A stretch of DNA of 64,000 bases from Myxococcota bacterium. Its GTDB lineage: Bacteria; Myxococcota_A; SURF-8. The stretch spans positions 384,001 to 448,000 of the forward strand of contig OZ223209.1 in assembly GCA_965140415.1 (NCBI GenBank), written 5' to 3'. The notes beneath the pieces are model-generated. The model was not told where the DNA came from. It saw nothing but the letters and a program-made list of their open reading frames with translations, and ran no database searches. The first letter of the stretch is position 1. The number at the start of each line of letters is the position of its first letter. The translations under genes were made by a program, and so were the position numbers. Shown in pieces: positions 1,582 to 60,870 of the stretch.

Positions 1582-3264
1582 TTACTCCTCGGATTCCCGC
1601 AACTCTTCGCACTCCACCTGTTCGCGCAGATATTCTTCGCGGCCTTCCAGAAAATCCTTCAAGCGACCGATATGAATCAGGAAATCCGAGCGACTGTCGT
1701 TCCTGTCGTTGGGATCGGCGCTGATGGATTCCCATAAGACCTCATCCAGCGCATCCGGCAGGCGGGGCAGACGTGTTTGCCAATAGTCGCTGTCGAGCAT
1801 TTCGCAGATATTCTGCCGAATCTGTTTGCCCAATTCGGGATCGAGTTGCGTGATGTGAATCAGCACGTTGGCCCAGCATTCCGGGTAGCCTTCATCCGGG
1901 CCGATGTCATCGTCGTCATCTACAAGTCCGTTCAGCCACCAATGATCGGAGCGCATGTGGTCTTCGTCGCAGATGTCTTCCGGTTCCGAATCGAAATAGC
2001 AGCCAAGCGTCAGATCCATATCCCAGGGGTAAAACTCCCAGGCGCTTTTTCCCGATTGGTTGGTCTGCCAGGAAAAGTAGAAGTTGTTCGTTGTAGAATC
2101 CGGGTCTTGAATCAGAATTTTTCCGGCCAGATAATTCATGTAGGCACTGACATGCAATAAGGGTCGGGTGCGTGTGGTCACCGTTTCATGGCGGGTTCGG
2201 TCCAATTGATCTGACTCCTCAAAATCCGGCCAGATTGCCGTTTCGATAAACTGAATCAAGTCGGAATAGTCTTCTTCATCTCCGGTTTTTTTGTGGTAAT
2301 ACGTGGGGTATTCGCTTTCATCCGGCATCGGGACAAAGGCTCCGCCTGGATAGTAAATCCCCATTTCATACATGGCGTTGTCCCGGTTGCGGCCATTGGT
2401 TTCCAGGAAGTTTCCGCCGATGCGCTCGATTTCGACCATCAAGCCGTAATAGTCCCCATTGACGTACAATTGCTTGTAGCGGACGCGCGGTGTCGGGATG
2501 CGAGTCAATGCCCGATAGGTATGATAGGACAGGAAACTGCGCATGAAAGTCGGGTCGTCCCAATCCGCTTTGTAATTGATTTTACGAGCGAATCCCGGAT
2601 GGTCCACATCTTCCGGGAACCGAATGCGGAAGCTGCTTTTGGGGAAAGACCGGGAAAAGCTACCCAGAATGCGGATTTGTTCGCCGTTATCATAACGAAC
2701 GCCATCTACAGTAAGGACACAGTCGTAAAAAGTTTCAATACCACTGGATGCACCATCCAACAGCGCCTGAAAGTCCGCCGGGTCCATCTCCAAATCCGCG
2801 CGTCCCACCAGCGCGGGCATACAGAAACTTTCAATGCAATGCTCCCCGCTGCGGCACTGCGCATCCGCAGAACAGGCTCCGCATTGTCCATTCGCCCGGC
2901 AACCTTCCAACTCCCGGCATTGCGCCGCTGTTGTACAAGCTCCACATCGATTTCCCAGAAATCCCTGTCCGGGCAGGCAGTCACGAGGACCGGTGGGCGT
3001 TAAAATGGGGTCGTCATCATAAAATGGTTCAACCGCCTCTGGCCATTCAACCTCTTGAATTTCTTTAATATCGGCATCTTCATCGCCATCGGTGTGGTTG
3101 TTGCGGTCACCATCGGTAGAATCATCCAGGTCGCCATCGCTACTTTCTGGTTGATCTGAATCACCGTTTGTATTCGTTTCGTCTGAATTGCACCCGGCAA
3201 ATAGGAACGCCGAAGCGAGCAGCAACAGTATACAAATCAGAGACAGCATATGCTTGAATGCCAT
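1582..3264 (-). CDS. CotH kinase family lipoprotein with acidic DGD linker and short Cys-rich repeats
   Basis: Lipobox FAGC; CotH motifs SRSFPKSSFRIRF, DPTFMR, YVNGDYYGL..IE, NNFYF, FYPWDMDLTLG. Start moved to ATG 3264 (AAGGA upstream). Confidence 0.85.
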   Translation of the reverse strand: MAFKHMLSLICILLLLASAFLFAGCNSDETNTNGDSDQPESSDGDLDDSTDGDRNNHTDGDEDADIKEIQEVEWPEAVEPFYDDDPILTPTGPRDCLPGQGFLGNRCGACTTAAQCRELEGCRANGQCGACSADAQCRSGEHCIESFCMPALVGRADLEMDPADFQALLDGASSGIETFYDCVLTVDGVRYDNGEQIRILGSFSRSFPKSSFRIRFPEDVDHPGFARKINYKADWDDPTFMRSFLSYHTYRALTRIPTPRVRYKQLYVNGDYYGLMVEIERIGGNFLETNGRNRDNAMYEMGIYYPGGAFVPMPDESEYPTYYHKKTGDEEDYSDLIQFIETAIWPDFEESDQLDRTRHETVTTRTRPLLHVSAYMNYLAGKILIQDPDSTTNNFYFSWQTNQSGKSAWEFYPWDMDLTLGCYFDSEPEDICDEDHMRSDHWWLNGLVDDDDDIGPDEGYPECWANVLIHITQLDPELGKQIRQNICEMLDSDYWQTRLPRLPDALDEVLWESISADPNDRNDSRSDFLIHIGRLKDFLEGREEYLREQVECEELRESEE

Positions 3265-3325
3265 GATGAAAGTCCTTACCTGCACATGGGGTTTGCATGG
3301 AATACCACGCTTTAGTTTGTTTGTC

Positions 3326-3355
3326 ATGCTACGAGCAGAACCGAGCAACTGTCAA
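3326..3355 (-). promoter_or_regulatory. Putative sigma70-type promoter for the CotH gene
   Basis: TTGACA-N18-TAGCAT on the minus strand, about 60 nt upstream of the start. Confidence 0.5.
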
Positions 3356-3468
3356 GCCGGTTGTCACATTCGTTTCGCTTTTCGGGATATCTGCACTTTT
3401 GCTTGCCCGCACCGAAGCGATTTGATAGCATGGCATGGTGGATTGAAAACTTTGCAAGGGGTCACGTC

Positions 3469-4416
3469 ATGAAATCCAACCGGGCCTTTCAGATCAAGGC
3501 GCTTTGCTTTTTAGTGGCTGTATTGTCCAGTACCTTTTTAATGGGCGATTTCTGCGAGGATGTTCTTTCGATTCCCATCGAAGTCGAATACGCCACCAGT
3601 CCCACCAACGACTCCGCCTCGGAGGACTACGATCCGATTTCATTGGAAGTTTCCTTTAAAGACATGGCTCCGGTAACGGTAGACGGTGATCTGGACGGTG
3701 ATCTGGAAATACCCGCCCTGGATGGCGATCTGGATATTGAAACCGGGTTGGAAGGCGACATCCCCACCGTCGATGACATTCTGGATGGCGGCTATGATTT
3801 ATCCGTGCAGCATCTGACCGTCGATCTGACCGACCCCGAAAACGGTGGTGTGCGGGATATCAACAATTACAAGGGAAACATTCTGGGCGTTTTCATCCGT
3901 TCGGTCGGTTACGAAATTCCTCAGAGCAACATCCCGGCGGATCTTCCACCACTGGAAATTTACCTTTCGATCAAAGCCCAGGACGAGGAAAACTCGGATA
4001 CTTCTTTCGATTGGGATAGCTGGGTAGCTTCGCTGGAAGATGGCCAGTCGCTGGATTACGACTGGCTGACCGATCCCGATGGCGGCAACGCCGTGCGCCT
4101 GGGTAGCACCGATCGCCTGATCTGGAATGCACCACTGGGAGCGGAAGTCAACGCAGACGGTAGCTTTACCGTCCCATTAAGGGATTTCCCGACCTCGCAT
4201 TATCTGATTTCGCCGATCGAAAACATCGATCAGGTTTCCGAAGTCATTATGGAGAACTTCCGTTTCGAAGTGCTGGTTGTTCCCGCACCGGACGAAAACG
4301 GCCAACGCTCGCGGGTTTATGTGGACGAGGCATATCGCGATCTGATCCCCGACGATCTTTCGGGAAAGATCGATCTGATTCTGCACCTGGCGGTGGTTGT
4401 AATCGCCAAGGCCTGA
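3469..4416 (+). CDS. Exported acidic hypothetical protein (possible lipoprotein) with DGD repeats
   Basis: Hydrophobic N-terminus ending LMGDFC; contains DGDLDGDLE and LDGDLD; start moved to ATG 3469 (AAGGGG upstream). Confidence 0.7.
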   Translation: MKSNRAFQIKALCFLVAVLSSTFLMGDFCEDVLSIPIEVEYATSPTNDSASEDYDPISLEVSFKDMAPVTVDGDLDGDLEIPALDGDLDIETGLEGDIPTVDDILDGGYDLSVQHLTVDLTDPENGGVRDINNYKGNILGVFIRSVGYEIPQSNIPADLPPLEIYLSIKAQDEENSDTSFDWDSWVASLEDGQSLDYDWLTDPDGGNAVRLGSTDRLIWNAPLGAEVNADGSFTVPLRDFPTSHYLISPIENIDQVSEVIMENFRFEVLVVPAPDENGQRSRVYVDEAYRDLIPDDLSGKIDLILHLAVVVIAKA

Positions 4417-5266: not shown

Positions 5267-6547
5267 TCAACCCTCGGTTTCCACGTCTGCATCGACTTCT
5301 GCGGTTTCCGAGAGTTCCTCTTCCGTGTCGCTATCCGGCAACAGATCGCCGTCCGGGGCGGCATCCATGTCACCATCGGTACTCGGTAGCGCTTTGCCTC
5401 CAACACCGACGGACAGCTCCGGGTTGTTCAGATCGTCGCTGCTGATCGTGATTGTTTTGTAATAATCGCCAGCCGAAGTTGGAGTGAACGATACGGTCAA
5501 TAACGCCGAATCGTCCGACTGTATGATGGTTGGCATGGCGATCGGCTGCAATTGAAACACACCCGAAGGATCGATTAGTTGAGCCTTTAATATTGCCAGC
5601 GCTTTGCTTTGATCGTTCACGTTTTTTATCAACAAGGAACCCTGGCGAGTGGTTCCGGCTTCGACTTCCCCGAAATCGAGTTGAGCCGGTTCAACGGCAA
5701 TCACGCCGCCGCCTGCTCCGCGCCCCGTTAATTCAATCTGCCAATCCGCCGCATCGGTATCGTTACTGGCAACGATTACGGTTCCGGTCGCCTCCGCCTG
5801 CAAAGTCGGACGGAAGGTGACTTCAAACGAAAGTTCATAGCCGGGTTGTACGACGCTGCCATCTTTATCGGGCAGGCTGAAAGCCGCGTCGCTATCGACG
5901 GACAATTCCAGTGACTGCACCTGCAAGGGGCCGTCGCCGCTATTGTTGATGGTGAAGCTGCGCGTGGATTGCCCGTCGATGGCCACCAGCCCGAAAGCGA
6001 GCTTGGTATCGCCACCGATGTTCGGCTCGCCTGTTACTGTATCGCCATCCTGATCGCCGTCCTCTTCCTCTGCCGGCAATCCCGGACCGAATAACGAAAA
6101 GTGATCCGTCGTTGCACTGACGCTTAGCGCCGTTGTATCCACGTCTCCTTCCAGCGCGCTCCAGGTACTCTGGAAATCGGCAGCGGTATAAATGCGGATG
6201 GCGGCAGCATCCGTTTCTTCCGGCAAGCGGCTGTCATCGTAGTTCATGCTGATGGTAATAGGTTTGGCAAACGTCGTGTCTTCCGGTCCCAGCCGGTAGA
6301 AATCCCCAAGAGGCGTTACGCCGCGTGTCGGATCTTCTACCTTGACGACACTCAACTCCAGCGCCTCTTCGACCGCTCCGGCAGGCCATTGCAAGCTTAC
6401 TCCCAAGATTGTTACACTTCCGGCTTCGGGAGTGATCCACACGCCGGTTTCCGCCGGATCGTCGCCATCGCTGGAACAGGACATGCTACAACAAACCACA
6501 ACCGCGAGTAGCAGCAGACACAAGAGCATCGATCGTGCAGGGCGCAT
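5267..6547 (-). CDS. Lipoprotein with ZU5-like domain and two Ig-like (choice-of-anchor D/ASH-type) domains
   Basis: Signal peptide with Cys; ZU5-like segment (LGPEDTTFAKPITISMNY...TDHFSLF); two repeats of L.FG.V....I.N...L....V.F.PT; start moved to ATG 6547 (GAAGGAG). Confidence 0.7.
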   Translation of the reverse strand: MRPARSMLLCLLLLAVVVCCSMSCSSDGDDPAETGVWITPEAGSVTILGVSLQWPAGAVEEALELSVVKVEDPTRGVTPLGDFYRLGPEDTTFAKPITISMNYDDSRLPEETDAAAIRIYTAADFQSTWSALEGDVDTTALSVSATTDHFSLFGPGLPAEEEDGDQDGDTVTGEPNIGGDTKLAFGLVAIDGQSTRSFTINNSGDGPLQVQSLELSVDSDAAFSLPDKDGSVVQPGYELSFEVTFRPTLQAEATGTVIVASNDTDAADWQIELTGRGAGGGVIAVEPAQLDFGEVEAGTTRQGSLLIKNVNDQSKALAILKAQLIDPSGVFQLQPIAMPTIIQSDDSALLTVSFTPTSAGDYYKTITISSDDLNNPELSVGVGGKALPSTDGDMDAAPDGDLLPDSDTEEELSETAEVDADVETEG

Positions 6548-6681
6548 GGTGCGTTCTCCTTCTTCATGGCAGACAATAGTGCCTATCTGGACAGTCCGAG
6601 CCGTCAGATTATGACTCTTAACCTGATATAGTGTAGCGTATTCGCGTAGGTGCTGCAATCTCTTGAAGTCGGATTGTTTCG

Positions 6682-12341: not shown

Positions 12342-14480
12342 TCACGCTTGCAAACGTCGCCTGATCCAGGGGAGAGATAGAAGCAGGATCACCCACGGCA
12401 ATGCGGATGTTCCGGTTTGATGACAACCGGAACTGCTGCCGCCTCCATCGTCTCCGTCCACCTGGGGGGTGCCGGTCGAGTCGTCTTCGTCGCCATCAGT
12501 CCAGTTGATGTCCGGGGGAATGTATGGGTTGCTGTCTCCATCGGTGACAACGGTATCGCCATCGGTCAAGGAATCGCCGTCGGTTACTGTATCACCGTCG
12601 GTCGGATTGCCGTCACCGTCGGTAACGCCGCCGACGCAGACATTCTCTACGCATTGCGCCTGGTTGGCGCAATCGGAATCTTGGGTGCATTCGACACAAA
12701 CCGTTCCCTGGGAACACACCGGCGTATCGGCGGGGCAGTCGCCGCAGGAGCCGTTACAGCCGTTATCACCGCAGATTTTACCCGTACAATCCGGCTCGCA
12801 ACCGCAGATGCCGCCGACGCATTCTTCCCCGTTTTCGCAGCTGCCGCAGGAACCACCACAGCCATCCGAGCCGCAGTTTCGATTGGTGCAATCCGGGTTA
12901 CACACGCAGTGGCCATTCTCGCATTCTTCACTGACCGAACACAGGCCACAGGAGCCGCCGCAACCGTCGTCGCCGCAATCTCGTCCCAGGCAACTGGGTG
13001 TGCATTCACATTGCCCCGCGATGCAGGCCACGCCGTCATCGCACTGGCCGCAATAACCGCCGCAGCCGTCCGGCCCGCATTCCCGACCATCGCAATGCGG
13101 GGTGCATTGACAGATGCCGTTGGAACAGGGAATGCCGTTTAAACAACTGCCACAGGAGCCGCCGCAGCCATCATCACCGCATTCCTTGCCGTCGCAATCC
13201 GGGGTGCAATCGCAGACACCGTTTACGCAGTCGATGCCGGTAGGACAAGTTCCGCAGCTGCCGCCGCAACCGTTAGGACCGCAATTCTTTCCCTGGCAAT
13301 CCGGGGTGCATTGGCAGACACCCGGTGAAAGACAGCGTCCGCCATCGCCGCAGTTGCGCACCGGTAATTGGTAATCGTTGCAATCCCGATCCCACATGCC
13401 GCATTCGCAGTCGCAGTATTGTTCATCCCAGAATTTGTTTAAATCACAAGTCCAGTATTCCGTTTGATCCTGGGTGGCTTCCGCTTCGGAATCGACCCGC
13501 ATGGAGTCCGCGCCGCTACTATAGCGGCAAGAGCAGGAATAGTCGTACCAGCCATTGACCGAGTAGGAGTTGGCCGCTGCAATGCGATACGCACCGCTGC
13601 TGTAATAGTAACTCGGACCGCCGCTCATGCCGCTGATGAGGATATCGGCGAAACAGATGGTGTAGTCGTTCACTTCGTTGACGCTGGCGCTATCATGCAC
13701 CAGGTAATAGCCGGTGAAACCTTCCGCACCCGGATATCCAGCGGCGCGGATTGTACCGTAGTAATTGCTGCTACTGCCGCCATACATCGGGGAGTGCCAG
13801 CCGGTCAGCGCACCGATATTGTGGTTGACGGTCAACACCGCGTAATCGCCACGGAAATCTTCACTTTGTACCCACCAGGATGTCGTATGGACGCCGTCGG
13901 CTTTGACTTCCGTACCACCGAAAGGCGTGGAGTAACCGGCGGAAGAACTGGCCGGGTAGACTTCGATGCTCGACGCCCAGCCGTAGCTTTCCGAGTCGTG
14001 ACTGAACACACAATGTCCGGCGGTGAAAATTGTATGCTGGCCGATGACCGTGCCCGAGCAGCCCGCCATCACGTTATTGGGAAAGGTCATCACCAACTTC
14101 ACCACGGTACGGAACATGGTATCGTTCCAGGGTTTTTCTTCCAATACGGGCGAACGCCCGGCTTTGCTGTCTTTCGGCTCAAGCTGGACAACGTCCATTT
14201 CCGGGGGTTGTACAGCTTCGGATACGTCGAAATCGCGGAAGGTGGTTTCGCCGGTTCGAAGATCGTAGCGCACTTTTTGCAGCGGCTCGCTCGGCAAGGT
14301 GCTTGCATCGCGGAAGCGGGCGGCCTGCTCCGGTTCCAGCGTTATACCCATGGGGCGGATACAGTCTTCGCCTCGCCATTCGCAGGGTCCATAGCTGACT
14401 TTCGCCGATGCCGGAGCGACTACGAACAGCAAGAGCAGTAAAGATAGGACAGATACAACTGTGGCAGGGCGGGCAAACAT
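12342..14480 (-). CDS. Secreted trypsin/V8-like serine protease with Cys-rich repeats, DGD linker and MYXO-CTERM-like tail
   Basis: Triad motifs TAGHC, DYAVL, GMSGGP; six 8-Cys repeats; C-terminal GGGSSSGC + hydrophobic segment + RRR; start moved to ATG 14480 (AAGGAG). Confidence 0.85.
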   Translation of the reverse strand: MFARPATVVSVLSLLLLLFVVAPASAKVSYGPCEWRGEDCIRPMGITLEPEQAARFRDASTLPSEPLQKVRYDLRTGETTFRDFDVSEAVQPPEMDVVQLEPKDSKAGRSPVLEEKPWNDTMFRTVVKLVMTFPNNVMAGCSGTVIGQHTIFTAGHCVFSHDSESYGWASSIEVYPASSSAGYSTPFGGTEVKADGVHTTSWWVQSEDFRGDYAVLTVNHNIGALTGWHSPMYGGSSSNYYGTIRAAGYPGAEGFTGYYLVHDSASVNEVNDYTICFADILISGMSGGPSYYYSSGAYRIAAANSYSVNGWYDYSCSCRYSSGADSMRVDSEAEATQDQTEYWTCDLNKFWDEQYCDCECGMWDRDCNDYQLPVRNCGDGGRCLSPGVCQCTPDCQGKNCGPNGCGGSCGTCPTGIDCVNGVCDCTPDCDGKECGDDGCGGSCGSCLNGIPCSNGICQCTPHCDGRECGPDGCGGYCGQCDDGVACIAGQCECTPSCLGRDCGDDGCGGSCGLCSVSEECENGHCVCNPDCTNRNCGSDGCGGSCGSCENGEECVGGICGCEPDCTGKICGDNGCNGSCGDCPADTPVCSQGTVCVECTQDSDCANQAQCVENVCVGGVTDGDGNPTDGDTVTDGDSLTDGDTVVTDGDSNPYIPPDINWTDGDEDDSTGTPQVDGDDGGGSSSGCHQTGTSALPWVILLLSLPWIRRRLQA
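12696..13313 (-). repeat. Six tandem ~34-aa Cys-rich repeats (CxPxCxGxxCGxxGCGGSCGxC...C...C)
   Basis: Read directly from the translation; 102-nt period. Confidence 0.9.
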
Positions 14481-14752
14481 CGGATCTCCTTTCGCGGGGC
14501 AGCAAAGCAATGCGGCGAACTCATGCCATTTATTTGCTATCTGGCGAGCCCAAAAAAACGAACCACCGAGGCATGGATCTGTTGAAACCACGAAATAAAA
14601 CGTGACATCAAATCCAACAAAGCAGTGTAGCAGTATTAATTCCAACGTCAAGGCTTTGTTCCATTAATGGAAAACAAAATGCTTGCAAAAATGGACCCTT
14701 ACGTTTACATTCTCCAACCTTGAGGGAATTTATGTGTTTTGGAGGTAACCCG

Positions 14753-19690: not shown

Positions 19691-20332
19691 TTACTCCGCC
19701 GCGCAGGAGAATGCACCGGTGACATGGAAATTGTCGGCGCTGTCTTGCGGATCGTAAAGCAGGCAATCGAAGCTGCCGTTGTTGTCATCCACAACCGTGA
19801 TCGTACAAGGTGTGGTGGCCCAGTATTCCACGGTGGTATCGGTCTGGATGTCGTTAAGCGACCACTGAACGACGGCCTTGTCCAGTCCGGTGTACGTGCC
19901 TGCGCCATCATAAGTTTTGGCAGTCAGTTTGATTGTCGTGTAGCTGTTGTCCGGATCGTACATTTCCACGCGCAGTTCCGAATCCACCACGTGACAACCG
20001 GAAGTCGGCACCGCCGTGAATTGACCGTACACGTAACTGCCCGCCAAATCACCGTTTTCGACATCGAAGCACAGTTCATCCGCCTGCGGCGTGCATAGCT
20101 GCGCCACGGCATCGCCATCTACAGTCTGATCGCCATCAGCGGTATCGCCGTCCACTACCACATCGCCATCGGCAGTATCGCCATCCACGATCGTCTGATC
20201 GCCATCGGCGGTGTCACCATCAGTGGTGTCACCATCGGTGGTCGTATCGTCATCATCGCCGCCGCAACCTGCAACAAACAGCGCGAACACCAAAATTACC
20301 GCTAACAGCCAAAACGTTTTCTTTTCCATCAT
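19691..20332 (-). CDS. Lipoprotein with DGD-repeat linker and small beta-rich C-terminal domain
   Basis: Lipobox VAGC; eight DGD motifs; AAGGAG RBS. Confidence 0.8.
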   Translation of the reverse strand: MMEKKTFWLLAVILVFALFVAGCGGDDDDTTTDGDTTDGDTADGDQTIVDGDTADGDVVVDGDTADGDQTVDGDAVAQLCTPQADELCFDVENGDLAGSYVYGQFTAVPTSGCHVVDSELRVEMYDPDNSYTTIKLTAKTYDGAGTYTGLDKAVVQWSLNDIQTDTTVEYWATTPCTITVVDDNNGSFDCLLYDPQDSADNFHVTGAFSCAAE

Positions 20333-20455
20333 GATCGGCACTCCTTCTTATTCGGTCAGCGTAAAAGGTCTCTTTTAGAAACGGCGGTATTGTCCCCGAG
20401 AGAAGCCGGAATGTCAACTATTGAAGGTTGTGAATTCGTGGTGGGCATAAACAGA

Positions 20456-20524: not shown

Positions 20525-23500
20525 TTATTCAGGACAGCTACGAGGCGTATCGCCTTCCGTTGCTTCCGTCGTACACGAATACTGGCTGTAGGTGCTCGAC
20601 CAGCCGCACAGCGGATAGTCGCCCTCGCAGGTGAATTCATGCACCAGGCCTGCCTGGCAGCGACGCAAACCGGTATCGCCAACACAGCAGCCTTCCTCTT
20701 CGGTGATGCCGTAGCATTCATCGGCTGGATTCCCTTCTACCGTCAAGGTGAATTCCTTGCTCGTGTAGCTGCTGGGAAGTTCGCCATCAACCACCAGATG
20801 GTAGGTGCCGGTGGCCGGAGCGGTGAACTCGAATGCATCGAAGGTGGTTCCATAATACTGATCCACACCAGCCAGACAAACCATGCAGTTTTCGCCGATG
20901 TACGCACCCAGATCCAGCGAATCGTCGGTGGTATCCACGCGAACGCGGATGGTATCGCCTTCCGTCAGATCCAGTTCGAACATCAGATCTTCACCAGTGG
21001 TCACCCAACCGGTGCAGTCTTCACCGAAGTCGAAGCTGGCTTCGTTCACTTCGTGCGTGCCGGTGTAAGGCAGGTCGGCGAAAGCGCCCAGGTCCACATC
21101 CGCAGTCGGACAGGCCGGAACAGCCTGACAACTGCCACCCTGAACCGAGCGCGTCTGCATCTGCAAGGTATCCCCGGCGTTCACGTTCATTTCGAACCAG
21201 TCGGCATCGTCGGTGCCGATGTAACCCGTGGCCAGAGCGGGAATGACGATTGCATTGGCTTCGCCCATGGCGTTATTGGGTTCGGTTTCGCTGATGGCAT
21301 TGTATCCGTTGCGCACCGGAGTCTCTTCTGAAACGAGCTGGTAGTATCCGGTGGAAGTGGAGCTGTAGCCGTACACTTTAAGGTAATACGTGCCGTCTAC
21401 ATCGAAAGTGTGAGAGATCAGTGAATACAAGCCTTCACCGCCGTCGTCGTTGTAGGCGATATATTCAGCGCCGTCCGACGCCCACAGTTCCAGTTTGGTA
21501 TCCACCGTGTCATCGGTCATCGAAGTGTCGCAGTACAACCCGCTCTGACATTCGAAGTTTTCGCTGCACGCGCCGTCTTCGGGAACCGTGCCGAACTGAC
21601 CGTCATCGACGCAGCGATTGATGTCACCCTGATTGCTCAAGGTGGCGCAGGTGTAGTTTGCCGGGCAGGAATCACTGTCGCCACGAGCAGGAGCACCGAA
21701 GGTGCAGTCTTGATTGCACTTGCCTTCGTAGCAGACTTCACTGTCACATTCCAGATCCGTTTCGCACAGCGAACCGAAAGGTTTGTTCGCTTCGGCACAG
21801 GTAAAGGTCAGCGTGTAATCGCTGACGGCACCACTGTAGCCATCTACCACGATGAAGTAGCTGACTCCAGCATCGGCGTTGAACTGAATCTGCTCATCAC
21901 TCGTTCCGGTCGAACGGGTGATGCAGGTATTGGGATCGCAACTGCTGAGCAGGAAGAGATCCAGATCGGCGCTTAGCCCCGTCAGATCGACCGTGATCAA
22001 CTTGTCCGTATCCGATACGAAATTGTACAGCACTTCCGGTGCGGATTCCGTAAGCGTCGTGCAGGAATACAGGTCGTAGTTGGAACTGCCGTTGGTTTGG
22101 TTGTTGTGGGTGAAGCTGTCGTCACAGGTGGCATCGAAATCGGTGGTGCAGCAATCGACGTTCAGACGGCAGTCGTAATCATCGCAATCGGTGTTGCCGT
22201 CTTCGTCGTTATCGATGTCGTCGCCACAGTTTTCTTCGCCGCCTCCGATCAGGTCGCAGCTTCCAGCTTCTGCGTTGCATGTGGCGTTGCCGTCCACACA
22301 CTCTTCGGCAAGGCGCATGATGTCGCAGGAATCGGTGTTGTACAGATCGTTGTCCTGACAGACCTGCGGAGCCGCATCGGGTGCGCAGATATAGGTGCCG
22401 TATCCGATGTCTATACAGGTGCTATCCGGCGGACAAACGCCGCTCGTACTGCAATCGACGGTGCAGAACCAATAGTCCGAACCCGTGTACGCCACACACA
22501 CGCCGCTGTCTCCGCAGGAGTCGGTGACGTCCGGGTCGCAGGTGTCGCACTGTACGCTGCCTCCGCAGTTGTCGTCGAACTGGCAATCCACATCATCGCA
22601 ATCGGTGTTGCCGTCTTCGTCGTTGTCGAGATCGTCTCCGCACATTCCGACTTCACCACCGCCGATCAGATCGCACACACCATCAACATCATTGCATTCT
22701 TCATTGGTGGCGTCGCAGTCGGCATACAGTAACGAAATGCCGCAGGTGTCGACGGAGTAAACATCTTCCTCCGTGCAGGAGTAGCTGTCCAGAGTCGGTA
22801 CGCACCAGGAGACATCGCCGACCGAGGTGCAGTCCATGCCGTCTCCACAGGTTTCACCACCAGTGCAGTCCAGCACGCAGAACCAGTTGTCATCGTCTGT
22901 GTAGTGAATGCACTCGTAACCGGTGTCGCAGGGCTGGTAGTTTTCCGGGTCGCAGGTTTCACACTGCACTCCGCCGCCGCCGGTGCATTCCGATTCGGTA
23001 TAGGTGAACTGGTAATTGTTGATTTCGTTGTTGTTGCCGTATTCATCGACCTTGACGTAATAGGTGCCAGCCGGCAGGCAACCGACGCGGATGCGTGAGA
23101 ACAGGCCGGTATCATCGTCGTTGTAACCAATCTCGTTATCACTGGAATCATAAAGCCACATGCGCGTATCGCCGCTGGCTCCGGAGGTCTGCATTTCAAC
23201 CGTGGTCTCGGCAGTCAAGGTGAAGGTCCACCAGTCTACATCGGTAGCCGGGCAGATCGAGTGATCCTCGGATACGCCATTAACCGGTGTCGTGGCTGCG
23301 GTGGATTCGTTATCCGATTCATAGGCATCGTTTTCACAGGGAGGAACATCCTCGTCGCCGTCGATATCGCCATCGATATCGCCGTCGGTGGCGCAGTCTG
23401 CACTGTCATCGAAGTGATCGTCCGGATAGACGATGGCGCAGAAATCGTCGCAGTAGTTATCACCCTGCCAAGCACAGGGGTCCGCCGCCGCACAAGAACA

Positions 23501-24946
23501 GTTGTCGTAATAGGTGCCGCAAACATAGCTGTCGCAACTATCATAGTTGCAGGCGCAACCTTCAATGGCATCTACACACATACCCGAGTCATATCCCGCA
23601 CCCGTACAAAGCGCATTGCAGTCGCCGTTGCCGTAGCAATCCGCGTTGTCGCCGTCTACGTCGCCATCCACATCACCGTCGGTGGTGCAGTCCGCGCTGT
23701 CGTCGAAGTAATCATCCGGGTAAGCGAGGGCACAGAAGTCATCGCAGTAGTTGTCGCCTTGCCAGGAGCAGGGGTCCGCCGCCGAACAGGAGCAGTTGTC
23801 GTAGTAGGTGCCGCACACGTAAGAATCGCAGCTATCGTAGCTGCAAACACAGCTTTCGGTGGTGTCGTTGCAAATGCCGGAATCGTAGCCTGCATTGATG
23901 CAGCCCGAATTGCAATCGCCGTAACCATAGCAATCGGCGTTGTCACCGTCGACCACATCGCCATCGACCACATCGCCATCGATCACATCACCATCGATCA
24001 TGTCGCCGTCGATCATGTCGCCATCGATCATGTCGCCGTCGACATAGTCTCCATCGATGAGATCGCCATCCGGGTTGCAGGCTTCCTGGCTGAAGACCAG
24101 GGTGCAATAGCCGGGGCAGGTGGCGGTTACGCTGCCGTCTTCGTTGGTTGAAATGGTGCAGATTTCCAGAATAGGCATTTCGTCGATTTCGCAGCCTTCG
24201 ATATGAACTTCGGCATCGTCCTGACCTTCCAACACGACGGTAATGGTGAATCCACATTCGACATCCGTGTCTTCTTCGACCACGGCATACTGCGCGACCA
24301 ACTGATCGCACGCTGGCCCGGTTTCCGAAGCGATGCAGTAGGTGCCCGGGAAGTCCGCACAATCGGCACAAGGATCATCACCGTCAATCATGTCGCCATC
24401 GGGCATGTCACCATCAGGCATGTCGCCATCGGGCATATCACCATCGGGCATGTCGCCATCGGGCATGTCGCCATCGGGCATGTCACCATCGGGCATGTCA
24501 CCATCGGGCATGTCACCATCGGTCATGTCGCCATCGGGCATGTCGCCATCGGGCATGTCGCCATCGGGCATGTCGCCATCGGGCATGTCGCCATCGGGCA
24601 TGTCGCCATCGGGCATGTCACCATCGGGCATGTCGCCATCGGGCATGTCACCGTCGGGCATATCGCCATCGACCTTGTCACCGTCAACCGAGTCGCCATC
24701 GATGGTGTCACCATCCGTGGTGTCGCCGTCGACGGTGTCACCGTCTACCGTGTCACCGTCCACCGTGTCACCGTCCACCGTGTCACCATCTACCGTATCG
24801 CCGTCCGTTTGATCGGCATCGGTTTCGGTATCGCCATCAGTCGTGTCACCGTCAATGCCATCATCACTATCGCCCCCGCACCCCATCGTGCCCAGCGACA
24901 ACAGCAACACCAATAGCAACAGCATCCAAAATTGCGTGGTCCGCAT
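20525..24946 (-). CDS. Giant 1473-aa Cys/Asp-rich surface lipoprotein with DGD arrays, duplicated Cys-rich modules and PPC-like domains
   Basis: Lipobox TMGC; AAGGAGG RBS; PPC-like motifs (D.DWWTF...NDD...GTYYVKV); CxDxxDNDxDGxxDCxDxDC motif twice. Confidence 0.85.
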   Translation of the reverse strand: MRTTQFWMLLLLVLLLSLGTMGCGGDSDDGIDGDTTDGDTETDADQTDGDTVDGDTVDGDTVDGDTVDGDTVDGDTTDGDTIDGDSVDGDKVDGDMPDGDMPDGDMPDGDMPDGDMPDGDMPDGDMPDGDMPDGDMPDGDMTDGDMPDGDMPDGDMPDGDMPDGDMPDGDMPDGDMPDGDMPDGDMIDGDDPCADCADFPGTYCIASETGPACDQLVAQYAVVEEDTDVECGFTITVVLEGQDDAEVHIEGCEIDEMPILEICTISTNEDGSVTATCPGYCTLVFSQEACNPDGDLIDGDYVDGDMIDGDMIDGDMIDGDVIDGDVVDGDVVDGDNADCYGYGDCNSGCINAGYDSGICNDTTESCVCSYDSCDSYVCGTYYDNCSCSAADPCSWQGDNYCDDFCALAYPDDYFDDSADCTTDGDVDGDVDGDNADCYGNGDCNALCTGAGYDSGMCVDAIEGCACNYDSCDSYVCGTYYDNCSCAAADPCAWQGDNYCDDFCAIVYPDDHFDDSADCATDGDIDGDIDGDEDVPPCENDAYESDNESTAATTPVNGVSEDHSICPATDVDWWTFTLTAETTVEMQTSGASGDTRMWLYDSSDNEIGYNDDDTGLFSRIRVGCLPAGTYYVKVDEYGNNNEINNYQFTYTESECTGGGGVQCETCDPENYQPCDTGYECIHYTDDDNWFCVLDCTGGETCGDGMDCTSVGDVSWCVPTLDSYSCTEEDVYSVDTCGISLLYADCDATNEECNDVDGVCDLIGGGEVGMCGDDLDNDEDGNTDCDDVDCQFDDNCGGSVQCDTCDPDVTDSCGDSGVCVAYTGSDYWFCTVDCSTSGVCPPDSTCIDIGYGTYICAPDAAPQVCQDNDLYNTDSCDIMRLAEECVDGNATCNAEAGSCDLIGGGEENCGDDIDNDEDGNTDCDDYDCRLNVDCCTTDFDATCDDSFTHNNQTNGSSNYDLYSCTTLTESAPEVLYNFVSDTDKLITVDLTGLSADLDLFLLSSCDPNTCITRSTGTSDEQIQFNADAGVSYFIVVDGYSGAVSDYTLTFTCAEANKPFGSLCETDLECDSEVCYEGKCNQDCTFGAPARGDSDSCPANYTCATLSNQGDINRCVDDGQFGTVPEDGACSENFECQSGLYCDTSMTDDTVDTKLELWASDGAEYIAYNDDGGEGLYSLISHTFDVDGTYYLKVYGYSSTSTGYYQLVSEETPVRNGYNAISETEPNNAMGEANAIVIPALATGYIGTDDADWFEMNVNAGDTLQMQTRSVQGGSCQAVPACPTADVDLGAFADLPYTGTHEVNEASFDFGEDCTGWVTTGEDLMFELDLTEGDTIRVRVDTTDDSLDLGAYIGENCMVCLAGVDQYYGTTFDAFEFTAPATGTYHLVVDGELPSSYTSKEFTLTVEGNPADECYGITEEEGCCVGDTGLRRCQAGLVHEFTCEGDYPLCGWSSTYSQYSCTTEATEGDTPRSCPE
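23936..24070 (-). repeat. 15-bp tandem repeat, 9 units, encoding DGDxx
   Basis: DGDLI DGDYV DGDMI x3 DGDVI DGDVV x2 DGDNA. Confidence 0.9.
24371..24805 (-). repeat. 15-bp tandem repeat, 29 units, encoding DGDxx (17 x DGDMP)
   Basis: Plus-strand unit GGGCATGTC(G/A)CCATC counted across 24386-24670 (19 DGDMx units), flanked by DGDTV-type units. Confidence 0.95.
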
Positions 24947-29228: not shown

Positions 29229-29266
29229 CAGATCCTCCTTATTACTTCCCACGAAGAAGCAAATGG

Positions 29267-40146: not shown

Positions 40147-42156
40147 TTATTCGGCTTCCCACCAGATCGGCGAAGACCAGGCCCGTTCCTGATGTGTTTT
40201 CGGAATGGCGCTGTCCGAGCAGCCTTCCGGCAACTCGTCCGCGTTTTCCGGGTTGCAGTCGTAGGCGACCCAGCGACAGCTTGGATTCTCGATGACACGC
40301 GCGTAGTACAAGGCATCCTGGCTCGGATCGAAATCGGGATCGCTCCAGATGGCACACAACTGCTGCTCGCCTTCACCGGTGCGCTCGCAGCTCTGCTCGT
40401 CCACAGCGGCTTCTTCCTGATCGCTTTGGGCCACGTCGAAAACCTGTTGCTGCGGTTTGCCGTCGGAGTCGATCCACACCTTGATAATTTGCGCCCGTTG
40501 TAACGGAGTCCCCGGATTTTCGAAGCTTCCTTCATCCGCTTCCGCATAAATCATGAACACCGGTTCATCGCCCTCTTCTTCAGGTGAAGAAAGATCCGAG
40601 CCCATCGGAACACCCTTTTCGTAGCCTTCTGCAACCAGTTGCTCCGGGTCCAGACACAAGTTTTCCGAGTAGCCATAACCACCGAAAAAGCGCAGACGAA
40701 TGCGCGGGCCACTGGTGGTGTAGATTTCCCGGCGCTGCATCGCATCGAAAATGGCGTCCCGGCTTTTCTCCTGCGCCCAGACCGCCGCCAGTCCACCCGG
40801 ATTGTACATGCGCGGATTATGGGTAAACGTCCCTTCGCCCAGCCGCTTGGCCGCCGTGTCATCCACCATACCTACATGACCCAAAAAGCCGACTTCTGAC
40901 ACCATTCCCGGCGTTCCGTTGTGATTGTCCGTGCTGCCGATAACGCCGCTCTTATACGGATTCACGCCCAGGCGTTGACGTTCCTGCAAGCCGAAAGCCC
41001 AGACGTTGCGGATGTAATCCAATTTGGACAAGCACCCGAAGCCGTTGACGCCACCCCAGCCGGGCGTGTCGCCGCAGTCATCGAATTCGCTTTCACGGAT
41101 CTTTTCGAAGTCGCAATAGGGATCTTCCGGGATGCCCTCGAACCCGTTTTTACATTCCATATCGCCTTTGTGCTGCATCCCTTCCAGAACCGGTTCCATT
41201 TGCAAGCGCAGTTGCGCCTGATCGCGCTGGCTTTGCAGGCTTTCATCTTCGGAATAATACGGCGTATACAAGTTGCCGTTAGACCAGTTGGAGTTATGGG
41301 GAAGAACCATCACGTCGCAGCCGTTGTCATTGTCCAGGCAGTTGCTTTGCAAATGCTTCCACAGATCCGTTGCGATCGGATACTCGTAATACGCCGGTGG
41401 CAGATCCGTGAACAATGCATTTCGGAACATGACGACGCGATGCCAGTTGACCACCCCTGCCGAGCCGGTGTACTCGTAGCCGGGAAAGGTAACGAACTCG
41501 CAACTAGCCGTGCGATCATAGGCGCGTTCAGCGGACTCGCGCACCATCTGCCAGGCCATCTCGGCGTACTGCCGACATAAAGCCAGATCGTCGCCGCAGA
41601 TTTCTTCCATCCGCTTCGGCTCGTCCGTGGCCAAGCGCACTCCCCATTGTGTCACACGGCTTTGTCCGCCTTCGCGATAGTCTTTGCAGGCTTCGTTAGT
41701 ATAGGCGGGAGAATCTTCCAGGGTACAAAGCAGATGCTCGCCGAAATATTCGATGTGATCGGAAAGACCGACGAAATCAAGCGGGCGGTCGATTTGAGCC
41801 TGACGCGTTCCTTTTCCCGTTCCATCCAAAGGCGGCAGCCACACGCTCTCTCCTTTTGCAAAGGCATAGGCTTCATCCATCGAAGTACGCACGTCATAGC
41901 CAAAGGCGTCCCAGGACAATGACGAGTGGGCGTGCCAGTCTCCGAAATAGAGATTGCGCAAGGGGTTGAAATCATTGCAGGCTTCTCGCTCTTCGGTATA
42001 TTCGAACAGGCGCTGCTCGGCTAACGAATCCGTATCGCCATCGGTTTCATATTCTGAATCCGCATCCCCGAACCACTCGTTTTCGTCGCCATCGGAGCAG
42101 GCAAGCGTTAACATGAGGATCGAGCATAAAGTCACTAACCAACCGTACACGTTCAT
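40147..42156 (-). CDS. DUF3604 family lipoprotein (PHP-like metallo-hydrolase fold)
   Basis: Lipobox TLAC; FGDWHAHSSLSWDA, PLDFVGLSDH, PHNSNWSNG, GSTDNH, YYARVIENPSCRW, QERAWSSPIW. Confidence 0.85.
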   Translation of the reverse strand: MNVYGWLVTLCSILMLTLACSDGDENEWFGDADSEYETDGDTDSLAEQRLFEYTEEREACNDFNPLRNLYFGDWHAHSSLSWDAFGYDVRTSMDEAYAFAKGESVWLPPLDGTGKGTRQAQIDRPLDFVGLSDHIEYFGEHLLCTLEDSPAYTNEACKDYREGGQSRVTQWGVRLATDEPKRMEEICGDDLALCRQYAEMAWQMVRESAERAYDRTASCEFVTFPGYEYTGSAGVVNWHRVVMFRNALFTDLPPAYYEYPIATDLWKHLQSNCLDNDNGCDVMVLPHNSNWSNGNLYTPYYSEDESLQSQRDQAQLRLQMEPVLEGMQHKGDMECKNGFEGIPEDPYCDFEKIRESEFDDCGDTPGWGGVNGFGCLSKLDYIRNVWAFGLQERQRLGVNPYKSGVIGSTDNHNGTPGMVSEVGFLGHVGMVDDTAAKRLGEGTFTHNPRMYNPGGLAAVWAQEKSRDAIFDAMQRREIYTTSGPRIRLRFFGGYGYSENLCLDPEQLVAEGYEKGVPMGSDLSSPEEEGDEPVFMIYAEADEGSFENPGTPLQRAQIIKVWIDSDGKPQQQVFDVAQSDQEEAAVDEQSCERTGEGEQQLCAIWSDPDFDPSQDALYYARVIENPSCRWVAYDCNPENADELPEGCSDSAIPKTHQERAWSSPIWWEAE

Positions 42157-42325
42157 TTGAAATCCTTTGGTGAAAATTCCTCGGCACAACTGACATGTCA
42201 TTCTATTTCCGGTTGCGCGTAATGCAAGGAGATTTTGGAGTTGGGGCGGGATTACTCGGGTAATATAGAGGTAGCAATTTCCAGAAATGAAGACCTGTTA
42301 GGCTCGATTGATCCTGCCTAAACTC

Positions 42326-58700: not shown

Positions 58701-58746
58701 TTATCGTATAGGGTTTTATAAACCCGCAAAAGCAAATGAGGTCGTC

Positions 58747-60147
58747 GTGTCGGAATTCCAGATTGATATCACCGAAATCAGTGAAGTCGAACGTGATGTG
58801 CGTGTCATCGTGCCGCAAGCGTTCATCGATCAGCGTTACGAAAGCCTGTTGGACGAATTGGCCGACGGCGCTCAGGTAAAGGGATTCCGCAAAGGCAAGG
58901 TGCCACGCAAGGTCGTTGCCAAGATGTACAACAAGCGCATCTTGCAGGACATCGAGCAGGAAGTGGTGCAGGAAGGGTATCGTCAGGCGATCGAAGACAA
59001 CAAAATGCCTGCCGTAGCGCTGCCTTCCTTCAAGCGCGAAGATCTGAAAAAAGGGACGGACTACAGCTTCTCCTTTATGGTGGAAGTTCGCCCCGAAATT
59101 AAAGAAGTCATTTTCGAAGGCGTGGAAGTCGAGCGCGAGCGTGTCGAAGTCAGCGATGAGCGACTCGATCAGGAACTGGAGCGTCGCCGCCAGGATAAGG
59201 CCAGCATGAAATCGATCGAAGGCCGCGACGTCACCGAAGACGGCGACTGGGTTTCGATGGACTATGAAGCCTTTAAAGACGGTGAAGCCATGCCGGGCAG
59301 CAAAAAGGAAAAAGATGTGCTGCAACTGGGCGGCAACCAGTTGATCCCCGGTTTCGAGCAGAACGTGATCGGCAAGAAAATCGGTGAGGAATTCGAATTT
59401 ACCCTGCCTTTCCCGGAAGACTTCCGCGTTCCCGAACTGGCGGGCACCGAGCTTTCCTTTCAGGCCACCGTGCATGAAATCATGGAACGCATCGTGCCGG
59501 AACTGGACGATGAATTCGCCAAGGACATGGGCGACTACGACGATTTAAACCAGTATCGCATTGCGGTGCGGGAAGAACTGGAAAAGAACGAAGAAGAGCG
59601 TGTCACACGTGCTTTCCATAACGAACTGTGGAAAAAACTAAGTGAAACCAATAAAATGGCTCTTCCTCCGAGCCTCGTGAAAGAGGAAGCCGAGAATCTG
59701 TTCAACAGCAATCTGCAACAGATGGTGCAACAGGGACTCGATCCGAAGGTGTTGGGCCTGGACGAATCCATCATGCGCGAGCGTGCCAAAGAGGAAGCTG
59801 AATTCAATCTGATCAGCGCCATTTTGCAGGAAAAACTGGCGGCTGACATGGGTGTAACCGTCAGTGACGAAGAGGTGGACGAGCACCTGGCCGAAATGGC
59901 CGCGCGTTTCGGTTTGCCGGTTGAACAGTTGAAAGCCTATTATTCGGCCAACGAAAACCTGGAAGGCATCCGCTTCGGTCTGCGTCAAACGCGCCTGGCT
60001 GAAATGCTGACGGACAAGGTCAACGTCGTTGAAGTCGATCCCAAGCCGATGAATGTTCCCGGTGCCATCACCCCGGCCAATGCCGAAGAAAAAGCATCCG
60101 CAGAAACCGAGGCTGAAGAGACGAACGAAACCAAGAGCGAGGAATAA
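58747..60147 (+). CDS. tig: Trigger factor
   Basis: GFRKGKVP ribosome-binding motif, FKBP-like LIPGFEQ, PELDDEFAK; GTG 58747 after GAGG (the ORF-track N-terminus overlaps the tRNAs). Confidence 0.95.
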   Translation: MSEFQIDITEISEVERDVRVIVPQAFIDQRYESLLDELADGAQVKGFRKGKVPRKVVAKMYNKRILQDIEQEVVQEGYRQAIEDNKMPAVALPSFKREDLKKGTDYSFSFMVEVRPEIKEVIFEGVEVERERVEVSDERLDQELERRRQDKASMKSIEGRDVTEDGDWVSMDYEAFKDGEAMPGSKKEKDVLQLGGNQLIPGFEQNVIGKKIGEEFEFTLPFPEDFRVPELAGTELSFQATVHEIMERIVPELDDEFAKDMGDYDDLNQYRIAVREELEKNEEERVTRAFHNELWKKLSETNKMALPPSLVKEEAENLFNSNLQQMVQQGLDPKVLGLDESIMRERAKEEAEFNLISAILQEKLAADMGVTVSDEEVDEHLAEMAARFGLPVEQLKAYYSANENLEGIRFGLRQTRLAEMLTDKVNVVEVDPKPMNVPGAITPANAEEKASAETEAEETNETKSEE

Positions 60148-60189
60148 AACTCGCCGCCACCATAAAGGTGGTTGATCGGGAGGAACGCC

Positions 60190-60870
60190 ATGCTACCTAT
60201 GAGATTGATTTCGAAAGGTAAAACCGCCGCTTCTCTCAGCTTGATCGTCACCCTGTGCCTGCTTCTCTGCCTGCTCTCCGCCTGCGGCGATGACGACAAC
60301 GGCGATGTCGCTGCCGATGGCGATTTCGATGGTGATGGCGAGCAGAATGCCACCTTGACCCCGCCCGATTGCGACATGCGCCGCAGCCTGACCAATGCCG
60401 ACGTGCCGGTGGAATGCCTGGCCTGGTGTAACAAGGTTGAATTGGTCGGTGGCTTGGATACCACATCGGAAGACTGCCTGCGCGACTGCCGCGCGATGAC
60501 CTACGAGCTTTTACCCGACAGCATGTTGCGCATCGAAAACTGCATCGTCGTTACCAGCAAGCAATCCTTCGAAGACGCCCAGGACCGGGGTGATCTGTCC
60601 GCCAACCTGCAACAATATTGCATGGCGCTGGAAGTGAGCAATTTGCCGTTACCGCCCGAGCGGCAGGACGTCTGCGAAGACTTATACGAAACCATGACCG
60701 CCTGCAACGATGACACCGCCTCGATTCACCGCATCAGTTGCCTGGAAAAACAGGCTCCGCTGATGACCGAAGATGCCTTTATGCGCTACAGCTATTGTGC
60801 TGAAAAAGCCTGTGAAAGCAACTGGGTGGACTGCTTGCAGGAGCAGGTCTGTTATTTCTTCAATGATTAA
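60190..60870 (+). CDS. Hypothetical Cys-rich lipoprotein
   Basis: Lipobox LSAC then GDDDNGDVAADGDFDGDG; GGAGG RBS. Confidence 0.75.
   Translation: MLPMRLISKGKTAASLSLIVTLCLLLCLLSACGDDDNGDVAADGDFDGDGEQNATLTPPDCDMRRSLTNADVPVECLAWCNKVELVGGLDTTSEDCLRDCRAMTYELLPDSMLRIENCIVVTSKQSFEDAQDRGDLSANLQQYCMALEVSNLPLPPERQDVCEDLYETMTACNDDTASIHRISCLEKQAPLMTEDAFMRYSYCAEKACESNWVDCLQEQVCYFFND

Follow-up and report, generated by a model that had tools for sequence, protein, structure and literature searches.

Acidic or unstructured stretches next to a membrane anchor have been described in several bacterial systems, among them the disordered linkers of Gram-negative lipoproteins, which form an unstructured tether after the lipidated cysteine (10.1101/2021.01.05.425367), and the Ser-Asp (SD) stalks of staphylococcal surface proteins (PMC3794999); these and the other published systems are compared here as far as the accessible part of each source describes them. 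The 64,000-nucleotide stretch of a Myxococcota genome analysed in this study (contig OZ223209.1, hereafter the window) encodes ten proteins with clustered Asp-Gly-Asp (DGD) tripeptides, which an earlier note had taken for a lineage-wide tag of exported proteins. We conclude that the DGD repeat is genuine, that it is under strong selection and fixed in position relative to the anchor, that it belongs to lipid-anchored proteins of surface type, and that it is a variant of the known acidic tethers. Beyond the earlier note, its first copy has a fixed position, every copy is under selection, a single Gly-Asp extends through the order, and relatives use other repeat units. A literature search returned no description of DGD linkers in these bacteria, its coverage being incomplete and absence from print not shown.

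The DGD stalk resembles the described lipoprotein linkers as a disordered tether, and the three-residue stretch about 12-16 residues out that touches the membrane machine LolCDE (PMC12846838) is comparable to the slot of the first DGD. In known linkers, length and disorder matter and sequence does not, whereas in DGD stalks the exact tripeptide is selected (ratio of non-synonymous to synonymous differences, pN/pS, 0.002-0.018). Unlike those linkers, DGD also recurs internally and before C-terminal anchors, and periplasmic lipoproteins, the expected cargo of Lol, lack it. SD stalks likewise place acidic repeats between anchor and functional domains of various surface proteins, but they have a Ser acceptor and a strict dipeptide period, and belong to one adhesin family of Gram-positive bacteria; in DGD stalks Ser/Thr is not obligatory, spacing is variable, about 450 unrelated proteins are involved and we identified no transferase.

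The Bacteroidota lipoprotein export signal (LES) is CS(D/E)2 or K(D/E)2, with CSEE wild-type-like (PMC6222051), and an LptZ route has been described for surface lipoproteins of that phylum (PMC13692018). The likeness lies in an acidic motif near the lipid Cys of hydrolase-type lipoproteins that is absent from periplasm-facing ones, and DGD-bearing proteins also have an acidic patch at +3 to +6 (counted from the lipid Cys). However, the LES sits at +3/+4, is single and tolerates Glu for Asp, whereas DGD begins at +9, is repeated, needs its Gly and does not tolerate Glu (EGD in 2 of 867 neighbouring units); moreover, it is found in another phylum and also on MYXO-CTERM proteins. The Dx[DN]xDG loop (PMC3123361) shares D-G-D in its DxDGDG form, is Asp/Gly-rich and is common in extracellular proteins, but it is a six-residue loop of folded contexts, whereas DGD units lie in unstructured linkers. 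Only 31 of 3976 DGDs fall within DxDGDG, and Gly directly follows DGD in 5%, so that the kinship to DxDxDG loops proposed earlier is not upheld. The MYXO-CTERM pathway with myxosortase and type II secretion (T2SS) (PMC11980579; 10.1101/2023.06.07.544157) is present in the genome, and DGD lies in the disordered region mentioned for CTERM proteins; it is outside the defined signal, the accessible parts of these sources name no motif in the adjacent region, and other Myxococcota use other units. The DGD stalk departs in a defining property from each of the disordered tether, the SD stalk, the LES and the Dx[DN]xDG loop.

Distribution of DGD among protein classes

In the 5.98-Mb source genome of the window (G000), 4152 genes were called with our own hexamer-model gene caller, and proteins were assigned to approximate classes by lipobox, hydrophobicity and C-terminal patterns; since the lipoprotein class contains misplaced members, e.g. 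a GidA, a GT4 and an S49 protein, the DGD contrast between classes is diluted, not inflated. The ten window proteins had been selected by DGD count, which biases a test within the window, and the genome-wide count is therefore the unbiased one. Lipoproteins contained 3301 DGDs against 631 in local shuffles, and a composition artefact was rejected on the basis of such shuffles. The cytoplasmic class was near chance (197 observed, 172-183 shuffled), in agreement with the earlier observation that cytoplasmic proteins have no DGD clusters. Per 1000 residues, DGD reached 9.06 in lipoproteins, 8.69 in CTERM-type proteins and 2.99 in doubtful lipoproteins, compared with 1.05 in signal-peptide-only, 0.27 in cytoplasmic and 0.18 in membrane proteins.

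Clustered DGD was found in 355 of 709 predicted lipoproteins and MYXO-CTERM-type proteins, compared with 2 of 2132 cytoplasmic calls, both of which look like mis-started lipoproteins. At least two DGDs occurred in 397 of 663 lipoproteins, 39 of 46 CTERM-type calls had DGD no more than 80 residues from the Cys, and 451 of the 4152 called genes (about 11%) encode lipid-anchored proteins with at least two DGDs. When possible anchors were removed, clusters remained in 3 of 373 signal-peptide-only proteins, and the density in such anchor-less exported proteins was 0.42 per 1000 residues. Their acidic linkers are rich in E, P, A and T and mostly DGD-free: 5 of 33 held at least two DGDs, and at least two of those five are probably misclassified anchored proteins. 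An exported protein of 9626 residues (G000:C1:4896164-4925281, minus strand) has just four scattered DGDs.

Two domain scans covered 100 of 102 lipoprotein calls from 20 tiles picked for richness in DGD-free ones, and 40 of 45 anchored calls taken from tiles at even spacing, four overlapping with the first scan. DGD-free proteins included the envelope machinery (LptE, PilP, the PilQ secretin, LpoB, LPP20, OmpA/DUF4398, a LolA-like protein and two peptidyl-prolyl isomerases), together with two M23 peptidases, a substrate-binding protein with SLT domain, a redoxin, a cytochrome c and TPR proteins; a Band_7 protein carried one DGD. At least two DGDs were found with GH92, GHL10, GH31/36-like, lipase, arylsulfotransferase, FGE-like, Lcl_C, Kazal and PPC domains, and also with IgGFc-binding, Ig, Kelch, RHS, beta-helix, PQQ-type propeller and molybdopterin oxidoreductase domains. 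A GH8 protein, one 5'-nucleotidase, two FGE-like proteins, a Big_5 and a VIT/VWA protein look like surface proteins and are DGD-free, which counts against a strict rule. Because clustered DGD is rare in anchor-less exported proteins and absent from periplasmic machinery lipoproteins, DGD marks lipid-anchored surface-type proteins and not exported proteins in general; the tag proposed earlier should therefore be restricted to the former. We infer surface exposure of the carriers from the kinds of domain listed and from what is known of MYXO-CTERM proteins (PMC11980579), and in this uncultured lineage DGD can serve as a practical marker parting surface-type from periplasmic lipoproteins.

Position, anatomy and selection of the units

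Counted from the lipidated Cys, the start of the first DGD falls within +9 to +13 in 246 lipoproteins, compared with 16 in which it falls within +2 to +8. All starts at +2 to +8 are at chance (17 observed, about 20 expected), those at +9, +10, +11 and +12 number 48, 69, 66 and 45 against 5-10 expected each, and from +9 outward DGD is 6- to 9-fold above positional expectation. Among the 397 DGD-bearing lipoproteins, the slot holds DGD in 258 and xGD in 50, a Cys-rich start is found in 47 and neither in 42; N is the commonest non-D residue preceding a slot GD (15/72). The share of slot DGD climbs from 4% to 75% with the acidity of +2 to +7, and Asp is present at +3 to +6 in 26-38% of DGD-bearing compared with 7-12% of DGD-free lipoproteins, in a patch separate from DGD. 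At the opposite end, the last DGD of CTERM proteins starts no closer than 10 residues to the Cys in 41 of 43 cases, the distance being 10-13 residues in 14. The placement noted earlier in the window (after the lipid anchor, between domains or at the C-terminus) is upheld genome-wide, where DGD lies after the anchor, between domains and before C-terminal anchors.

The first DGD, or the ancestral GD, at +9 to +13 might be an export or sorting tag that diverts lipoproteins from the Lol route or recruits them to the T2SS, the LES-like acidic patch lying just upstream and the arrays being secondary copies that add avidity. The clean split between periplasmic machinery lipoproteins and hydrolase or adhesin types is consistent with such a tag, as are the climb of slot DGD with upstream acidity, the overlap of the slot with the +12 to +16 triplet engaged by E. 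coli LolE (PMC12846838), and the T2SS export of MYXO-CTERM proteins (PMC11980579) in a genome that has a T2SS cluster and LolC/E-like genes. However, one tag would suffice, yet 3337 of the 3976 DGDs are clustered and are strongly selected deep in arrays, and the slot lacks both DGD and GD in 89 of the 397 DGD-bearing lipoproteins. In addition, the LolE contact is reported as sequence-independent (PMC12846838), and CTERM proteins are not known Lol substrates. We consider an export tag unlikely.

The unit is x-D-G-D-x, preceded by V, T, P, I, A or S and followed by T, V, L, S or I, with K, R, Cys and aromatics avoided in the spacers (each <1%). The spacing from DGD to DGD is mostly 5 (1277) or 6 (892) and less often 7 (233) or 4 (121), and spacings of 4-7 are mixed inside single arrays. 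DGD alone among DxD triplets is strongly enriched in tethers (1308 observed, 184 expected), the corresponding values for other triplets being DAD 104/71, DSD 162/111, DLD 120/55, DGE 56/52 and EGD 35/51. Single-sequence AlphaFold2 models of the 216-residue window lipoprotein (ORF 19691-20341) and of the first 270 mature residues of the giant window lipoprotein (ORF 20525-24946) predicted no secondary structure over the arrays (pLDDT 30-55), a weak test in that folded parts also had low confidence. A search of the ESM Atlas gave, as a lead only, a best score of 0.86 with no Pfam family. Given the mixed spacing and the predicted lack of structure, the units look autonomous rather than parts of a regular fold.

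Selection was assessed on adjacent repeat units paired by DNA likeness, allowing 1-4 mismatches to the DGD unit and any encoded neighbour. In 867 such pairs from 134 genes, pN/pS was 0.003, 0.018 and 0.002 for the D, G and D codons and 0.42 for the spacers, which corresponds to about 25 non-synonymous and 935 synonymous differences in DGD codons compared with 724 and 718 in spacers. Only 18 neighbours were broken, with just 2 EGD and 2 NGD among them, and a stricter, non-deduplicated pair analysis agreed. The middle unit was exact in 964 of 1048 period-5 and 550 of 591 period-6 cases. Linkers of different genes shared 28 of 12838 30-mers (2.5 after recoding) in 9 gene pairs only, adjacent DGD 9-mers were identical in 452 of 2890 cases (10% expected at random), and adjacent units in 524 of 2345. 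The low pN/pS and the few shared 30-mers therefore indicate that copies are kept at the protein level and not just by slippage: every DGD copy is under purifying selection at the protein level. DNA-level copying was rejected as the main cause of the arrays, and an assembly artefact was rejected in view of the synonymous variation and the same trait in six other genomes. The signal was weaker in G001 (18 pairs, 4 non-synonymous motif changes) than in G000, and for the units of other lineages the test comprised 0-18 pairs only.

These data bear directly on the idea of a near-neutral, low-complexity dialect, in which acidic linkers expanded by slippage are copied between genes with no sequence-specific role. 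Units do vary by lineage and can be swapped in orthologues, some arrays are recent tandem expansions, and the 28 shared 30-mers exceed the 2.5 left after recoding. However, DGD codons have a pN/pS 20 to 180 times lower than the adjoining spacers, codons are mixed, sharing of 30-mers between genes is confined to the small fraction given above, and the position of the first DGD is fixed. Such a dialect is very improbable, having been largely refuted already, and we regard it as nearly excluded.

Per-copy selection would also be accounted for by an unmodified polyanionic stalk whose D-G-D units each bind Ca2+ or Mg2+ via an Asx-turn-like geometry, stiffening the stalk, bridging it to lipopolysaccharide or neighbours, or making it resistant to the cell's own proteases. 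Such geometry explains the loss of both D>E and G>X changes, and the preference for N before a slot GD and the avoidance of K, R, Cys and aromatics in spacers are in line with it; acidic disordered motifs bind Ca2+ at about 100 uM (PMC8391695), and D-G-D is the middle of DxDGDG loops within the Dx[DN]xDG consensus (PMC3123361). In contrast, the canonical loop context is rare (the 31 DxDGDG among 3976, and 179 DGDx[DNS]G), exported proteins of this genome that have no anchor bear acidic linkers mostly free of DGD, and metal binding alone leaves the sharp onset at +9, the lone Gly-Asp of order-mates and the lineage-own units unexplained. A metal-binding stalk is therefore rather doubtful as the explanation.

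Related units and candidate readers

Triple DGD arrays, counted with 3-9 bases between units, numbered 115-1831 in the six genomes of the family and 568 in G008 from another family of the same order, compared with 9 in G006, none in either G007 or G009, and no more than 23 in 31 outside genomes. Strict period-5 triples numbered 8-971 in the family and 57 in G008, and did not exceed 6 in each of 291 outside genomes, in line with the lineage-wide occurrence suggested before. The array-poor order-mates keep a single Gly-Asp in the slot, and slot Gly-Asp was found in all four families of the order. In acidic lipoproteins, GD at +9 to +16 occurred in 9 of 22 in G009 (2 and 2 in control windows), in 4 of 10 in G007 (0 and 0) and in 19 of 24 in G006 (8 and 8), where 6 of 13 tiles were sited on known DGD matches; in non-acidic lipoproteins of the five order genomes sampled it occurred in 1 of 37. 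The slot was not clearly above controls in G001 (5/10 against 3 and 4) and G008 (6/15 against 4 and 7), because tethers there are GD-rich throughout, in small samples. GH92 lipoproteins from six genomes all had Gly-Asp with G at +10 to +16 (13/13), their linkers being otherwise dissimilar, and three DUF3604 copies in the order had DGD tethers compared with 0 of 30 homologues from outside genomes. These counts indicate that the slot Gly-Asp is older than the arrays.

Other lineages fill the same place with other units. Orthologues of the lipoprotein ORF 19691-20341 have 4-8 DGDs with different spacers in four genomes, whereas both genomes of genus g4 (G003 and G005, same family) have (GE)n, which in this genus stands in DGD slots, continues into GD units and is found alongside DGD arrays; it is also seen there ahead of a CTERM tail (loci L241, L243, L273 and L275). 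Across 41 genomes, (EG)n arrays were abundant only in g4 and family f13 (G019), with 3 matches in G040 and 0 in 37 others, which makes genus g4 a natural test case for a gained enzyme. Triple DAG arrays were absent from all 10 order genomes and present in 33 of the 51 other genomes of the phylum (counts 1-57, with some control matches), and in G031 (family f21; L196) xDDD[ST]x with period 6 is laid out as DGD arrays are. In G008, poly-Asp and DGD tracts are mixed (L142, L146). To judge from these repeats, DGD is the form taken in one lineage by an acidic stalk unit that seems to be widespread in the phylum.

Considering the above results, we tentatively propose that each DGD is a site for a membrane-bound modifying enzyme on a disordered acidic stalk. 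DGD would be the fixed unit of a stalk that keeps lipoproteins and MYXO-CTERM proteins at a distance from the membrane, and each copy would be a recognition site for a membrane-bound, periplasm-facing enzyme acting on proteins anchored in the inner membrane and awaiting type II export. Every copy would be modified, probably on Asp, since many units lack Ser/Thr, and the active site would be located above the membrane, so that copies would count only from about nine residues out. Oligosaccharyltransferase has a minimum distance of 12-14 residues. One near-anchor site would be ancestral in the order, and arrays would give a densely decorated stalk comparable to the SD repeats of staphylococci, which are glycosylated by SdgA/SdgB (PMC3794999); linkers ahead of CGP- and PEP-CTERM are presumed glycosylated (10.1101/2023.06.07.544157). 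We favour a membrane-bound modifier because it covers all five facts to be explained, namely the restriction to anchored proteins, the minimum anchor distance at either end, the exact copies, the free spacers and the lineage-specific units; the differing units (DAG, DGD, (EG)n) would fit a reader of changing specificity. The data suggest that an undescribed envelope protein reads DGD, and a protein reader of either kind, modifying enzyme or export machinery, is rather probable.

The export machinery required is encoded in the genome: myxosortase (NF040914) scored 127 bits, above the cut-off, TIGR03901 (MYXO-CTERM) matched in 49 of 61 phylum genomes, a T2SS gene cluster contained GspC-delta, GspD and GspN above and GspK and GspM below their cut-offs, and LolC/E-like genes were present. 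Ten PMT_2/ArnT-like membrane transferases in G000 (4-11 in four other genomes, none tied to DGD) are candidate modifiers. Complex prediction of GspC (residues 40-308) with a 55-residue tether of ORF 19691-20341 returned 'no answer' with a score of 0.00, which is evidence neither way. Besides PilQ, two GspD-type secretins exceeded the TIGR02517 cut-off (L222:13056-15791 and L224:11820-13991), the latter away from the T2SS cluster and beside an mreB-like gene, and a lolC/E-like gene of G008 (G008:C1:744325-745712) is split into two short frames of 152 and 338 residues, possibly by a frameshift or assembly error.

Several observations weigh against the modification site. No writer enzyme was found among the candidates searched: the Asp beta-hydroxylase domain PF05118 of SmaO-like systems (PMC12186529) is absent from 10 of 10 order genomes and present in 3 of 41 overall, STT3 was found in 0 of 5 genomes, and tubulin-tyrosine ligase (TTL) in none of G000, G003, G005 and G008, with one weak partial match in G019. 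Protein isoaspartyl methyltransferase (PIMT) has one full-length copy in each of G000, G001, G006 and G007 and none in the DGD-rich G008; the RimK family, in 3 of 5 genomes, does not match the DGD range; one ArnT-like GT-C transferase, searched by sequence, was absent at E<=1e-40 from G007 and G008. By-eye inspection of the neighbourhoods of the myxosortase, T2SS, secretin and lolC genes gave no evident dedicated partner. Ser/Thr lies within two residues of 2369 of the 3976 DGDs, and the 40% without it would need an Asp acceptor, for which we know of no precedent. Furthermore, 7 of 46 CTERM calls lack DGD up to 80 residues from the Cys, 11-30% of lipoproteins with a strongly acidic character do not reach two DGDs, (GE)n replaces DGD in 2 of 6 orthologues of ORF 19691-20341 in a genus that otherwise keeps DGD arrays, and D>E and G>X changes could also be removed by weak physical selection if populations are large.

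Two known chemistries do not fit. The O-glycosylation sequon of Bacteroidota is D-S/T-A/I/L/V/M/T, and this follows only 484 of 3976 DGDs. As to isoaspartate or aspartimide installed by PIMT at Asp-Gly, no extra or dedicated PIMT tracks the motif, and the order-wide invariant is Gly-Asp, not Asp-Gly.

In a broader form, which we hold to be quite possible without counting on it, acidic units would make up a Myxococcota-wide code, DGD here and GE, DAG or DDD in other lineages, serving as sequons for an undescribed Asp/Glu-modifying membrane enzyme or as T2SS recognition handles. Modification would take place at a fixed height above the membrane, and unit and reader would co-evolve and occasionally be swapped; alternatively, one T2SS would recognise hundreds of unrelated folded substrates via linear handles. 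If a reader exists, DGD would represent a kind of protein modification new to bacteria, placed on acidic residues, or else, as a short linear handle, would bear on the long-standing question of how the T2SS chooses hundreds of unrelated lipoproteins. The units of the different lineages lend themselves to natural swap experiments in cultured myxobacteria.

DGD-bearing proteins of the window

The ten window open reading frames (ORFs) contained 84 DGDs (mean 16.1, maximum 27 in 500 shuffles of 30-residue blocks), confirming the clusters reported on all ten, whereas the remaining 36 called genes had 3, all singles (shuffle mean 2.6). By ORF start, the counts were 3 (1582), 3 (3361/3469), 5 (5267), 7 (12342), 8 (19691), 46 (20525), 6 (27792), 2 (31303), 2 (40147) and 2 (60172/60190). 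The features are as follows.

3082..3138, minus strand: CotH lipoprotein tether, three DGD at +19, +27 and +35 from the lipid Cys (nt 3192); ORF 1582-3348
3682..3729, plus strand: exported protein with three DGD inside an acidic internal segment; ORF 3361-4416
5345..5377, minus strand: two DGD in the C-terminal acidic tail of an Ig-domain (ASH/choice_anch_D) lipoprotein; ORF 5267-6658
6041..6061, minus strand: two DGD (residues 200 and 204) in an inter-domain linker of the same Ig-domain lipoprotein, ORF 5267-6658
6461..6469, minus strand: single DGD at +4, outside the usual +9 to +13 slot, lipoprotein ORF 5267-6658
12342..12425, minus strand: MYXO-CTERM-like tail (Cys, hydrophobic helix, Arg-rich end; by sequence pattern) of a protease-like protein; ORF 12342-14651
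12450..12620, minus strand: seven-DGD stalk ahead of that tail, the last starting 11 residues before the tail Cys; ORF 12342-14651
20111..20236, minus strand: eight-DGD tether of the 216-residue lipoprotein, first at +11 (Cys nt 20266); ORF 19691-20341
23354..23386, minus strand: three DGD, period 4, in the fourth linker (residues 521-531) of the giant lipoprotein, ORF 20525-24946
23648..23680, minus strand: three DGD, period 4, in its third linker (residues 423-433)
23942..24070, minus strand: nine DGD, period 5, in its second linker (residues 293-335)
24377..24853, minus strand: 31-DGD N-terminal stalk of the giant lipoprotein, first at +10 (Cys nt 24880), mostly period 5
28830..28970, minus strand: five DGD in the linker that follows an N-terminal Cys-rich module, and a sixth within a Cys-rich repeat; lipoprotein ORF 27792-29252
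31309..31338, minus strand: lipoprotein with two DGD at its very C-terminal end; ORF 31303-31893
42034..42093, minus strand: DUF3604 lipoprotein tether, DGD at +3 and +20, FGD filling the +11 slot; ORF 40147-42201
60316..60336, plus strand: two DGD at +12 and +16 (Cys nt 60283); lipoprotein ORF 60172-60870

Only three of the ten (ORFs 19691, 20525 and 60172) have DGD within the +9 to +13 slot, and the CotH lipoprotein has the variant NGD at +10. In at least eight lipoproteins, a conserved module around ELADRLT directly follows the Cys in place of the +10 DGD, some members having DGD arrays further in (G000:C1 near 292547, 460019, 466945, 2201729, 3534391, 3751161, 4059493 and 5638216; also L276 and L175), and similar starts were seen in G005 and G009. 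The giant lipoprotein has 1473 residues and PPC domains, and many units of its N-terminal stalk are MPDGD, without Ser/Thr. For ORF 27792-29252, the five linker DGDs counted earlier were found again, the total being six with the one in the Cys-rich repeat.

With regard to the labels given earlier, Pfam confirmed CotH and DUF3604 (ORFs 1582-3348 and 40147-42201), whereas the supposed ZU5 protein, ORF 5267-6658, matched ASH/HYDIN Ig and choice_anch_D, with no ZU5 at E<=0.001. ORF 12342-14651, labelled a protease, has motifs that we take to be trypsin-like, but no Pfam or NCBIfam match, and its tail is not among the TIGR03901 matches (E<=0.1), which comprise 25 other G000 proteins. ORF 3361-4416 lacks a canonical lipobox, so its anchor is uncertain, and it is among the few exceptions outside the anchored classes. 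Other DGD-bearing exported proteins (G000:C1 69397, 1997140 and 2482582) resemble window 3361-4416 (plus strand) in having an early Cys after an atypical lipobox, e.g. MGDFC, MLQC or ANSC, possibly reflecting a relaxed specificity of Lgt.

Lipoprotein signals were also present on AMMECR1 proteins, one of them fused to Memo (L115:15729-17423 and L121:3805-5628), which is unexpected for these families. Finally, window positions 46638-48004 (minus strand) encode two tandem predicted lipoproteins of 227 residues, both DGD-free, the second of which matches LolA (E 1.3e-13) and is unusual as a lipoprotein.

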